Shown here: piece after piece, positions 3,008 through 4,763 of the stretch | Layout: each line of letters opens with the position of its first letter | How positions within the stretch are numbered: position 1 is the first letter of the stretch | Virus record (IMG/VR): IMGVR_UViG_2609459844_000002 | Span: 1-4,763 of that record | From: a virus | Lineage: Duplodnaviria; Heunggongvirae; Uroviricota; Caudoviricetes | Length of the DNA stretch: 4,763 nucleotides | Reading direction: 5' to 3' (one strand) | Translations under genes and position numbers: made by a program | The notes under the pieces: generated by a model | Told to the model about the DNA's origin: nothing | The model's input: the letters and a program-made list of their open reading frames with translations, nothing else | Database searches by the model: none

Positions 3008-3412
3008 GTGGTTAAAAATTTAGAATACATGAAGGGGATGCTTGAGGTATTTTTGAAAGCGAAAACTCCCTTTATATCTACAAAAGACTTAGCTAATGCG
3101 GGGTACGATATCTGCTCGAATGAAGGGATGTTTCATTATCTACTTCTTATTGAGCAAGGTTATATCAGTAATAAAGATCTAATAACGGATGACATAACTA
3201 AACTGGGCTACATGCGCCATTGTGGCCATATGCTAGATATGGGTACCGACGTGCGACTATCTGCGCAGGGACAAGAATTCGCCCAGGCATTAAATGAACC
3301 TACGGTTTTTGAGAAATTAAAGTCAATGAGCGATGCCCCTTTGAGTACAATCAAAGATGTTGGGCTGGAGTTAACGAAGGCCTATTTAAAGAAGAAATTT
3401 GGCCTCGAGTAA
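3008..3412 (+). CDS. Hypothetical protein, 134 aa, in AT-rich moron; possibly DUF2513-like
   Basis: Canonical SD AAGGAGG (2996-3002) 5 nt before GTG 3008 (an alternative ATG lies 21 nt downstream in frame). Coding segment is visibly AT-rich compared with the flanking phage genes. The N-terminal pattern and the GYDI...HYLLLIEQGYI motif resemble my recollection of DUF2513 phage proteins; unverified. Confidence 0.6.
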   Translation: MVKNLEYMKGMLEVFLKAKTPFISTKDLANAGYDICSNEGMFHYLLLIEQGYISNKDLITDDITKLGYMRHCGHMLDMGTDVRLSAQGQEFAQALNEPTVFEKLKSMSDAPLSTIKDVGLELTKAYLKKKFGLE

Positions 3413-3624
3413 AATTTCTACCCTCACGAGTTAAGTTGTTTTGTGATGGTTATTCGCAATGAATATCTTTAGCCACTGGCATTTGCTGGTGGTTTTTTTA
3501 TGCGCATCCCTCGCGCACCACAAAGGGAGTCTTTCAGTAGTGATTCTGAATATCAGTGTGATAAACGTATTTGATAATCATTATCATTTTTGGTGGGTCC
3601 TTTCCGGCGATCCGACAGGTTACG

Positions 3625-3636
3625 GGGCGGCGACCT
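3625..3636 (+). other. cosN: lambda-type 12-nt cohesive-end sequence GGGCGGCGACCT
   Basis: Exact lambda cohesive-end sequence, preceded by the lambda right-end sequence ...GATCCGACAGGTTACG and followed by lambda left-end sequence running into the Nu1 start. The cos region overall (cosQ side, cosN, cosB) spans about 3560-3800. Confidence 0.8.
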
Positions 3637-3732
3637 CGCGGGTTTTCGCTATTTATGAAAATTTTCCGGTTTAAGGCGTTTCCGTTCTTCTTCGTCATAA
3701 CTTAATGTTTTTATTTAAAATACCCTCTGAAA

Positions 3733-3789
3733 AGAAAGGAAACGACAGGTGCTGAAAACGGGCTTTTTGGCCTCTGTCGTTTCCTTTCT
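3733..3789 (+). repeat. cosB region: perfect 16-bp inverted repeat (AGAAAGGAAACGACAG / CTGTCGTTTCCTTTCT) flanking a 25-bp spacer; probable Nu1-binding R elements with an intervening IHF site
   Basis: Inverted repeat read directly (3733-3748 and 3774-3789). Position between cosN and the Nu1 start matches lambda cosB, where oppositely oriented R sites flank the I1 IHF site. Confidence 0.6.
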
Positions 3790-3813
3790 CTGTTTTTGTC
3801 CGTGGAATGAACA

Positions 3814-4227
3814 ATGGAAGTCAACAAAAAGCAGCTGGCTGACATTTTCGGCGCGAGTATCCGTACCATTCAGAACTGGCAGGATTTGCCCGTAATCAAG
3901 CTGGGTAACGCGCGGGTTGTCCTTTCCCGCCGCAGACGTCGTAAAAAGGGGCAGCGTTCATCCCTGAAAGGTGGCGGCAGCGTGCTTGTGGTGGGAAACC
4001 GTCGTATTCCCGGCGCGTTTATTCAGCAACTGAAAAATGGCCGGTGGCATGTCATGCAGCGTGTGGCCGGGAAAAACCGTTACCCCATTGATGTGGTGAA
4101 AATCCCGATGGCGGTGCCGCTTACCACGGCGTTTAAACAGAATATTGAACGGATACGGCGTGAACGTCTTCCGAAAGAGCTGGGCTATGCGCTGCAGCAT
4201 CAACTGAGAATGGTAATAAAGCGATGA
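3814..4227 (+). CDS. Deletion-fusion ORF: Nu1 N-terminus (23 codons) joined in frame to the C-terminal ~114 codons of tail protein Z
   Basis: MEVNKKQLADIFGASIRTIQNWQ is the lambda Nu1 N-terminus; DNA similarity to lambda Nu1 stops at about 3884. The rest (DLPVIKLGNARVVLSRRRRRKKGQRS...LRMVIKR) matches my recollection of the lambda gpZ C-terminus and ends in the ATGA stop/start overlap with U, as Z/U do in lambda. Probably a non-functional remnant. Confidence 0.75.
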   Translation: MEVNKKQLADIFGASIRTIQNWQDLPVIKLGNARVVLSRRRRRKKGQRSSLKGGGSVLVVGNRRIPGAFIQQLKNGRWHVMQRVAGKNRYPIDVVKIPMAVPLTTAFKQNIERIRRERLPKELGYALQHQLRMVIKR

Positions 4228-4619
4228 AACATACTGAACTCCGTGCAGCCGTACTGGATGCACTGGAGAAGCATGACACCGGGGCGACGCTTTTTGATGG
4301 TCGCCCCGCTGTTTTTGATGAGGCGGATTTTCCGGCAATTGCCGTTTATCTCACCGGCGCTGAATACACGGGCGAAGAGCTGGACAGTGATACCTGGCAG
4401 GCGGAGCTGCATATTGAAGTTTTCCTGCCTGCTCAGGTGCCGGATTCAGAGCTGGATTCGTGGATGGAGTCCCGGATTTATCCGGTGATGAGCGATGTCC
4501 CGGCACTGTCAGATTTGATCACCAGTATGGTGGCCAGCGGCTATGACTACCGGCGCGACGATGATGCGGGCCTGTGGAGTTCTGCCGATCTGACTTATGT
4601 CATTACCTATGAAATGTGA
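4224..4619 (+). CDS. U: Tail tube terminator protein U
   Basis: 131 aa, near-identical to lambda gpU as I recall it ([22 protein letters not shown]...LTYVITYEM). Same length and same position between Z and V. Confidence 0.93.
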
Positions 4620-4626
4620 GGACGAT

Positions 4627-4763
4627 ATGCCTGTACCAAATCCAGCAATACCGGTGAAAGGTGCCGGAACCACCCTGTGGGTTTATAACGGGAGCGGCGA
4701 CCCTTATGCGAACCCGCTTTCAGACGTTGACTGGTCGCGTCTGGCTAAAGTTAAAGACCTGAC
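4627..4763 (+). CDS. V: Major tail protein V, N-terminal 45 codons; continues beyond the window
   Basis: [45 protein letters not shown] matches the lambda gpV N-terminus; GAGGA SD 5 nt upstream; 7-nt gap after U as in lambda. Confidence 0.92.

Follow-up and report, generated by a model that had tools for sequence, protein, structure and literature searches.

The window analyzed here, a 4,763-bp stretch of DNA that is the entire draft contig JNPF01000082.1 of assembly GCA_000703525.1 (our locus L009), contains a complete lambda-type cos site at positions 3595–3789, composed of cosQ, cosN, I2, R3, I1, R2, and R1. We consider the surrounding DNA to be, with good probability, a passive relic of a lambda-family prophage in which cos survived an illegitimate deletion of 7.95 kb, and in which the site would be competent in trans while efficient mobilization from it would be unlikely.

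A global alignment to circularized lambda (NC_001416) pairs window positions 3595–3884 with lambda 48473–48502 followed by 1–261, and the 290 aligned bp include four differences, none of them inside cosQ, cosN, I2, R3, I1, R2, or R1. Our names for these sub-sites follow the papers of the Feiss laboratory (PMC4856287, PMC4669245). The packaging-termination signal cosQ is the heptamer GGGTCCT (3595–3601, plus strand), which is identical to lambda, invariant across all seven of the seven cos sites aligned, and separated from cosN by the same spacing as in lambda, with no indel between the two. We take the corresponding lambda coordinates of cosQ to be 48473–48479. A highly conserved element of 7 bp is what has been described for cosQ (PMC4669245). 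The cosN segment of ~22 bp (3620–3641) is identical to lambda 48498–17 and contains both the 12-base cohesive-end sequence GGGCGGCGACCT and the conserved CG at each of the two nick positions; the cohesive-end sequence is found once in the window, at 3625–3636 (0.02 occurrences expected by chance, allowing up to 1 mismatch). The presence of cosN had been proposed in the original prediction and is borne out, as is the top-strand end placed at 3624/3625, which agrees with the lambda alignment. The bottom-strand nick, which in cosN falls between bp 12 and 13 (PMC9026076), is predicted at 3636/3637.

The bent segment I2 (3642–3674, plus strand; lambda bp 18–50, including the critical bp 30–35), whose role has been described (PMC4856287), is identical to lambda and preserves the spacing between cosN and cosB. 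Within cosB, R3 (AAGGCGTTTCCGTTCT, 3673–3688, plus strand, equal to lambda 49–64) is a direct repeat of R1 and, by its identity with lambda, a predicted binding site for TerS (gpNu1). Between R3 and R2 lies the I1 region, with the IHF site and an intrinsic bend (3689–3732, plus strand; for its function see PMC4856287), which again is identical to lambda. R2 (3733–3748, minus strand) has a reverse complement that equals R1, and R1 itself (CTGTCGTTTCCTTTCT, 3774–3789, plus strand) is identical to lambda, the absence of A137 bringing it 1 bp nearer to R2. The R2/R1 pair constitutes the inverted repeat previously assigned to cosB, with arms at 3733–3758 and 3764–3789 that are 85% complementary, and the full layout of R3, I1, inverted R2, and R1 is found with R sequences of lambda specificity. 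A 238-bp fragment, lambda 48446–182, is a complete working cos used in cosmids (PMC4856287), and the span first assigned to the site, 3560–3800, coincides nearly exactly with this fragment. Judged by its sequence, the cos of the window is an ordinary lambda cos, and an intact one.

The original prediction also held that sequence upstream of cos matches the right end of lambda. Homology is present at 3572–3624 (plus strand; lambda ~48452–48502 in the alignment to NC_001416), ending at the top-strand nick 3624/3625, but it is short (~53 bp), and left of 3572 the window is a moron region unrelated to lambda.

The four differences from lambda are 48486 T>C (window 3608), 134 G>A (3758), a missing A137, and, within Nu1, 229 T>C (3852). 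Point changes in the sub-sites of cosN and cosB were looked for, and none was detected in cosN, R3, R2, or R1. An alignment with isolated phages places 48486C in Turner, PhiR11_1, and an Stx1a phage, the pair of 134A and delta-137 in Stx1_112808 and phiSTEC1575-Stx2k, and delta-137 alone in Turner and PhiR11_1; the same single-base deletion occurs in Qin of K-12. Every difference of the cos from lambda recurs in this manner in isolated phages or other prophages, and in E. coli WP8-S17-ESBL-12 a 219-bp cos that is 100% identical adjoins Nu1 and A genes of full length. A TG insertion immediately 5' of cosQ is common to the window and an ETEC6 prophage, as is the sequence to the left. Because the same bases occur in isolated phages, the variant bases are predicted to be harmless to cos. 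Flanking context or the local topology of chromosomal DNA, for example, might render the site inactive in spite of its sequence, and I2 mutants illustrate that cleavage in vitro and use in vivo can diverge (PMC4856287). We find such inactivity very improbable: all sub-sites are wild type, including I2 bp 30–35, all variant bases are found in viable phages, and chromosomal cos is used efficiently in helper packaging (PMC4669245). The cos is thus likely to be a competent substrate for the terminase of a helper.

To the right of cos, the terminase genes are gone, as originally predicted: Nu1 ends after 23 codons and A is absent, and no terminase gene is encoded in the three loci that span the whole element (L002, L003, and L004). 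The open reading frame at 3814–4227 (plus strand) is an in-frame fusion of Nu1 codons 1–23 to Z codons 80–192, the last 113 codons of Z, in which Pfam recognizes Phage_Nu1 at 1–31 and Minor_tail_Z at 21–137. The joint, at 3884|3885, corresponds to lambda 261|8213 and has GGA microhomology (3 bp) on both sides; the deletion comprises lambda 262–8212 (7,951 bp) and removed the remainder of Nu1 together with A, W, B, C, Nu3, D, E, FI, FII, and Z codons 1–79. We posit that the deletion, by way of the 3-bp microhomology, brought Nu1 codon 23 up against Z codon 80 and left cos in place. Beyond the fusion lie the intact tail terminator gene U (4224–4619, plus strand; 131 aa; Pfam Phage_tail_U, E 1.6e-61) and the 5' part of the major tail gene V (4627–4763, plus strand), which is cut by the contig end, and the stretch from truncated Z through U to truncated V has 96.6% DNA identity to lambda. 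A third deletion is visible in L003 (10814–12303), where a truncated V (tail-tube profile positions 1–94 of 135) is joined to the C-terminal 346 residues of J; this V/J joint is absent from all complete E. coli genomes searched.

Exactly this fusion protein is encoded by 21 public contigs, and 10 places were taken as loci. Because the other nine loci are 99.6–100% identical to the window, the comparison indicates one recent clonal E. coli lineage, to which assemblies GCA_020857475.1 and GCA_021449925.1 belong along with GCA_000703525.1. The Nu1/Z joint has 0 matches in 185,579 species-representative genomes and no single-piece match in 5,426 complete E. coli genomes. In L002, L003, and L004 the element lies in E. 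coli between potC and potB; its flanks match E. coli at 99% identity, and its right end is common to 817 complete genomes. It is ~16.7 kb long, with a variant of ~21.5 kb that includes the Q region (L001 and L005). From left to right, the element encodes int, xis, an exonuclease, DUF1482, dicB, a methylase fragment, and three tRNA genes; then a truncated nanS-p-like esterase, Rz/Rz1, small open reading frames, cos, the Nu1-Z fusion, and U; and finally truncated V, the C-terminal 346 aa of J only, lom, stf, and tfa. Pfam confirms int, xis, and the truncated V and J genes. The gene lists of L002, L003, and L004 include no terminase, portal, capsid, holin, endolysin, or replication gene in the complete element, and most of V to J is missing in the longer loci as well. 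Because these genes are absent, the element is predicted to be unable to package itself, build tails, lyse cells, or replicate; its inability to package itself had been part of the original prediction, and the loss of Nu1 beyond codon 23, A, W, B, C, D, E, FI, and FII agrees with it.

A ~4.8-kb stretch (at ~700–5900) that holds hok, DUF968, rusA, the Q antiterminator, and the full methylase is kept in L001 and L005 and deleted in L002, L003, and L004, the loci being otherwise identical; decay therefore appears to be still ongoing in this lineage. We also asked whether selection maintains cos, which loci that are ~100% identical, and so show no divergence, do not allow us to infer; their identity speaks for recency and leaves room for a role. 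We suggest that cos was probably retained by recency rather than by selection.

The window opens (1–52) within a tRNA gene, the third in a phage-borne set of Met-CAU, Arg-UCG, and Arg-UCU (L003 5993–6242), and a strong match to the sRNA family STnc100 (133–323; Rfam RF02076, score 139 bits, gathering threshold 47) follows directly downstream of the tRNA cluster. The nanS-p-like esterase (546–1481) combines DUF1737 with a SASA domain and is truncated, covering only positions 4–157 of 226 of the SASA profile; similarity to prophages of the O104:H4 type starts at 1421. Rz/Rz1 is located at 1581–2048, with Rz1 at 1801–2007, and no holin or endolysin genes are present between the esterase and Rz/Rz1. 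This arrangement is read as a second internal deletion, which took out lysis functions. Between Rz and cos are three conserved phage open reading frames (2267–2554, 2648–2872, and 3008–3412; phrog_3527, phrog_6100, and phrog_585), for which neither Pfam nor PADLOC gave a match; the first covers only profile positions 139–230 of 233 and may be a fragment. The stretch with these three frames has a GC content of 38–45%, against 52–58% elsewhere, and a terminator-like hairpin is located at 3471–3494.

The window is ~99% identical to prophages of the ETEC6/O104:H4 type up to ~3665, inside I2 (3555–3730 compared with L021 44340–44700). Past ~3665 the window goes on as lambda, while cosB in those prophages is a different one and their TerS is phage-21-like. 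The ETEC6 region, which is the best match to the left part of the window, was considered as the same locus and rejected, being a prophage at ompW with phage-21-like TerS and cosB. In this alignment the cosQ–cosN–I2 block appears to be a recombination crossover between packaging-specificity modules. A metagenome locus, L010 (700–900), encodes the identical Nu1-Z fusion with a different lambda-like right-arm sequence left of 3572, and it differs further by three substitutions and a gap of 2 bp near cosQ; the allele with this deletion therefore has at least two upstream contexts.

These observations bear on an alternative in which the relic serves as a reservoir for recombination, the cosQ–cosN–I2 block being a homology joint at which superinfecting lambdoid phages would swap flanking modules, namely the late-region morons on the left and the tail-fiber genes on the right. 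Cryptic prophages of K-12 donate Q-S-R-cos segments to lambda. The mosaic structure of the window at cos and the second upstream context in L010 are in keeping with such exchange, and the Feiss laboratory avoided K-12 hosts in some assays on account of recombination with the cos DNA of defective prophages (PMC4669245). This is, however, a general property of lambdoid mosaics and not particular to this site; we regard exchange at this locus as possible and on balance rather doubtful.

Phages with a TerS of lambda specificity are common in E. coli generally. The original prediction further proposed that a helper phage could recognize this cos and mobilize the region. Use of cos in trans is plausible, with precedents in passive prophages and in Sp4, but mobilization of this region, as it was worded, is not supported: packaging runs one way from cos and needs a second co-oriented cos, and none was seen in the DNA searched. 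Under the reading we favor, that of a passive relic with a competent cos, a terminase of lambda specificity would act together with IHF, TerS binding R3, R2, and R1 with IHF at I1, and TerL would nick at 3624/3625 and 3636/3637. Terminase would remain on the cosB end and move rightward, in the direction of Nu1. Its path would cross ~7.8 kb of prophage remnant (U, truncated V and J, lom, stf, and tfa), then potB, potA, pepT, and roxA, and would continue through phoQ, phoP, and purB to icd and beyond. The DNA left of 3625, which holds the morons, Rz, and the nanS-p-like gene, would not be taken, because cos packaging is unidirectional, toward the cosB/Nu1 side. Because cosQ, cosN, and I2 are intact, a run arriving from the left could equally end at this cos. 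Lambda packages DNA of ~38–51 kb, and an element of ~16.7–21.5 kb is far too short as a packaging unit. As a packageable unit, a trimer with three ~16.7-kb copies (~50 kb in all) was considered and rejected, there being no replication genes to make concatemers. Unless a second co-oriented cosQ–cosN lay ~38–51 kb away, the run would not be cut off and would be abortive, giving at best rare aberrant "docL"-like particles rather than efficient mobilization. The binding of cos, nicking, and translocation by terminase are treated in PMC4856287, PMC4669245, and PMC9026076.

A more generous reading of the same run is that a single cos is enough for packaging of the docL type, the head being filled from cos with the ~7.8 kb of remnant and ~40 kb of chromosome (potBA to ~umuDC) and the unterminated DNA being trimmed nonspecifically, which would result in rare polar transduction of right-flank markers. 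The initiation elements are all intact, the downstream gene order is known, and excision-defective lambda lysogens reportedly gave docL particles, with a cos start and an end in bacterial DNA (Sternberg & Weisberg 1975; Sternberg 1986). We nonetheless consider this outcome improbable. The cos terminase needs a second co-oriented cosQ–cosN in order to cut, since otherwise protruding DNA blocks tail joining (PMC6687093); a second cos is likewise said to be needed for the terminal cut in PMC8575938, and recent papers say that lateral transduction is not among the activities of cos phages (PMC12829572, PMC8575938). The site is, moreover, single-copy and non-replicating, and it would compete with the concatemers of the helper. 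A single cos alone is unlikely to move host DNA efficiently.

A second cosQ–cosN was found neither in the 20.4-kb loci, including the 10.6 kb readable downstream, nor in the 48 kb downstream of potB in E24377A, which is a proxy for the backbone and not the source strain. Contigs covering the whole element extend to 24.6 kb beyond cosN. These searches weigh against a natural cos-to-cos cassette, in which a second co-oriented lambda-like cosQ–cosN would lie 38–51 kb from 3625 in another prophage of the source strain, and any lambda-specific helper would package a defined chromosomal block into infectious particles, as in the tandem-prophage system of Feiss. Potential partners are abundant: requiring at least 80% of a 219-bp query to be covered, we found a lambda-type cos in 3,998 of 5,426 complete E. 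coli genomes (74%), at a median of two places per positive genome. Furthermore, the breaks of the draft contig at the phage tRNA gene and within V suggest that its genome holds further lambdoid prophages sharing these segments. Short-read contigs nevertheless cross the 313-bp cos/Nu1 segment, which would be a weak argument against another identical copy in the strains concerned, and the right spacing and orientation are unlikely to arise by chance (PMC6687093). We give the cassette only a very small probability, and we give hardly any to its specific form, in which the orphan cos is paired with a co-oriented cosQ–cosN one head-length away, beyond the contig break at 24.6 kb or upstream of potD. 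Were this form true, ~40–50 kb of core chromosome (potBA-pepT-phoPQ-purB-icd and onward) would be packageable from cos to cos whenever a lambda-specific helper grows, at ~1 complete lambda particle per cell, a cos-phage counterpart of lateral transduction with a dead prophage as its driver.

The kind of feature described here is already known: orphan cos sites exist in K-12 and have long been used in the laboratory, and use in trans of the cos of a terminase-less prophage is textbook phage genetics and not new. The passive relic in the window is a further example of lambdoid prophages decaying by internal deletions while short cis-acting sites persist, and it calls to mind that terminase-less remnants can still serve as substrates for the packaging enzyme of a co-resident phage. 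Given a rightly placed partner cos, core genes including phoPQ might be movable in phage particles. Laboratory constructs and O157 Sakai have demonstrated the principle; on current evidence a single cos gives no efficient transfer.

Compared with the cos of phage lambda (48446–182), the window has the same sub-sites in sequence, order, and spacing, apart from R1 lying 1 bp nearer to R2; it differs in having a 23-codon Nu1 stub fused to Z and only ~53 bp of the lambda right arm upstream. The Qin prophage of K-12 (cos-nohA) is likewise a decayed lambdoid prophage with a lambda-type cos and without TerL or head genes, its cosQ–cosN being identical to lambda and followed by nohA, a truncated tail fiber gene, tfaQ, and pinQ. 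Qin, however, keeps a full-length Nu1 homolog (nohA) and carries altered bases in and around R3, whereas the window combines a perfect cosB with a Nu1 stub. A second K-12 match to cos besides Qin is present in our results, which we take to be DLP12.

Phage-inducible chromosomal islands of the cos type (cos-type PICIs, such as EcCICFT073) resemble this element in that they are small, integrated, and equipped with int and a lambda-like cosQ–cosN; they rely on lambda or phi80 as helper. They have a non-phage cosB read by Rpp-TerS and their own replicon, and they lack remnants of phage structural or lysis genes (PMC6739421, PMC9026076). The open reading frame adjacent to cos in the window is the Nu1-Z fusion and not rpp, and the gene lists contain no primase or replicase and do contain Rz/Rz1, truncated Z, U, truncated V and J, lom, stf, and tfa. 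Based on the phage cosB, the absence of rpp, the lack of a visible replicon, and the many phage gene remnants, we reject a reading of this element as a PICI or satellite.

In the "passive prophage" assay of Feiss, a helper terminase packages the chromosomal DNA between two cos sites (PMC4669245), with a yield of ~0.7–2 virions per cell when the two sites are a genome length apart (PMC4669245). The passive-prophage cos works in trans for both initiation and termination, and termination is independent of cosB specificity (PMC4669245). In strain MF532 the prophage is deleted from Nu1 rightward, like the window, and in MF713 the prophage retains cos rightward (PMC4669245). The Feiss strains and the window have in common a chromosomal cos in a partial, non-replicating prophage, the Feiss prophages being repressed and their cos used in trans; the strains differ in having a built-in second cos one genome length away, where none was seen for the window locus in the DNA searched. 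The Sp4 prophage of O157:H7 Sakai is near full length (~50 kb), in contrast to the window element of 16.7–21.5 kb, in which no replication module is seen. In Sp4, nu1 is disrupted, cos is kept, and its DNA is found in particles, which has been credited to the terminase of Sp14, a prophage with an identical cos (PMC2669165); Sp4 was excised after amplification by regional replication from the neighboring Sp5 (PMC2669165). The window is similar to Sp4 in that its small terminase gene is inactivated and its cos is kept.
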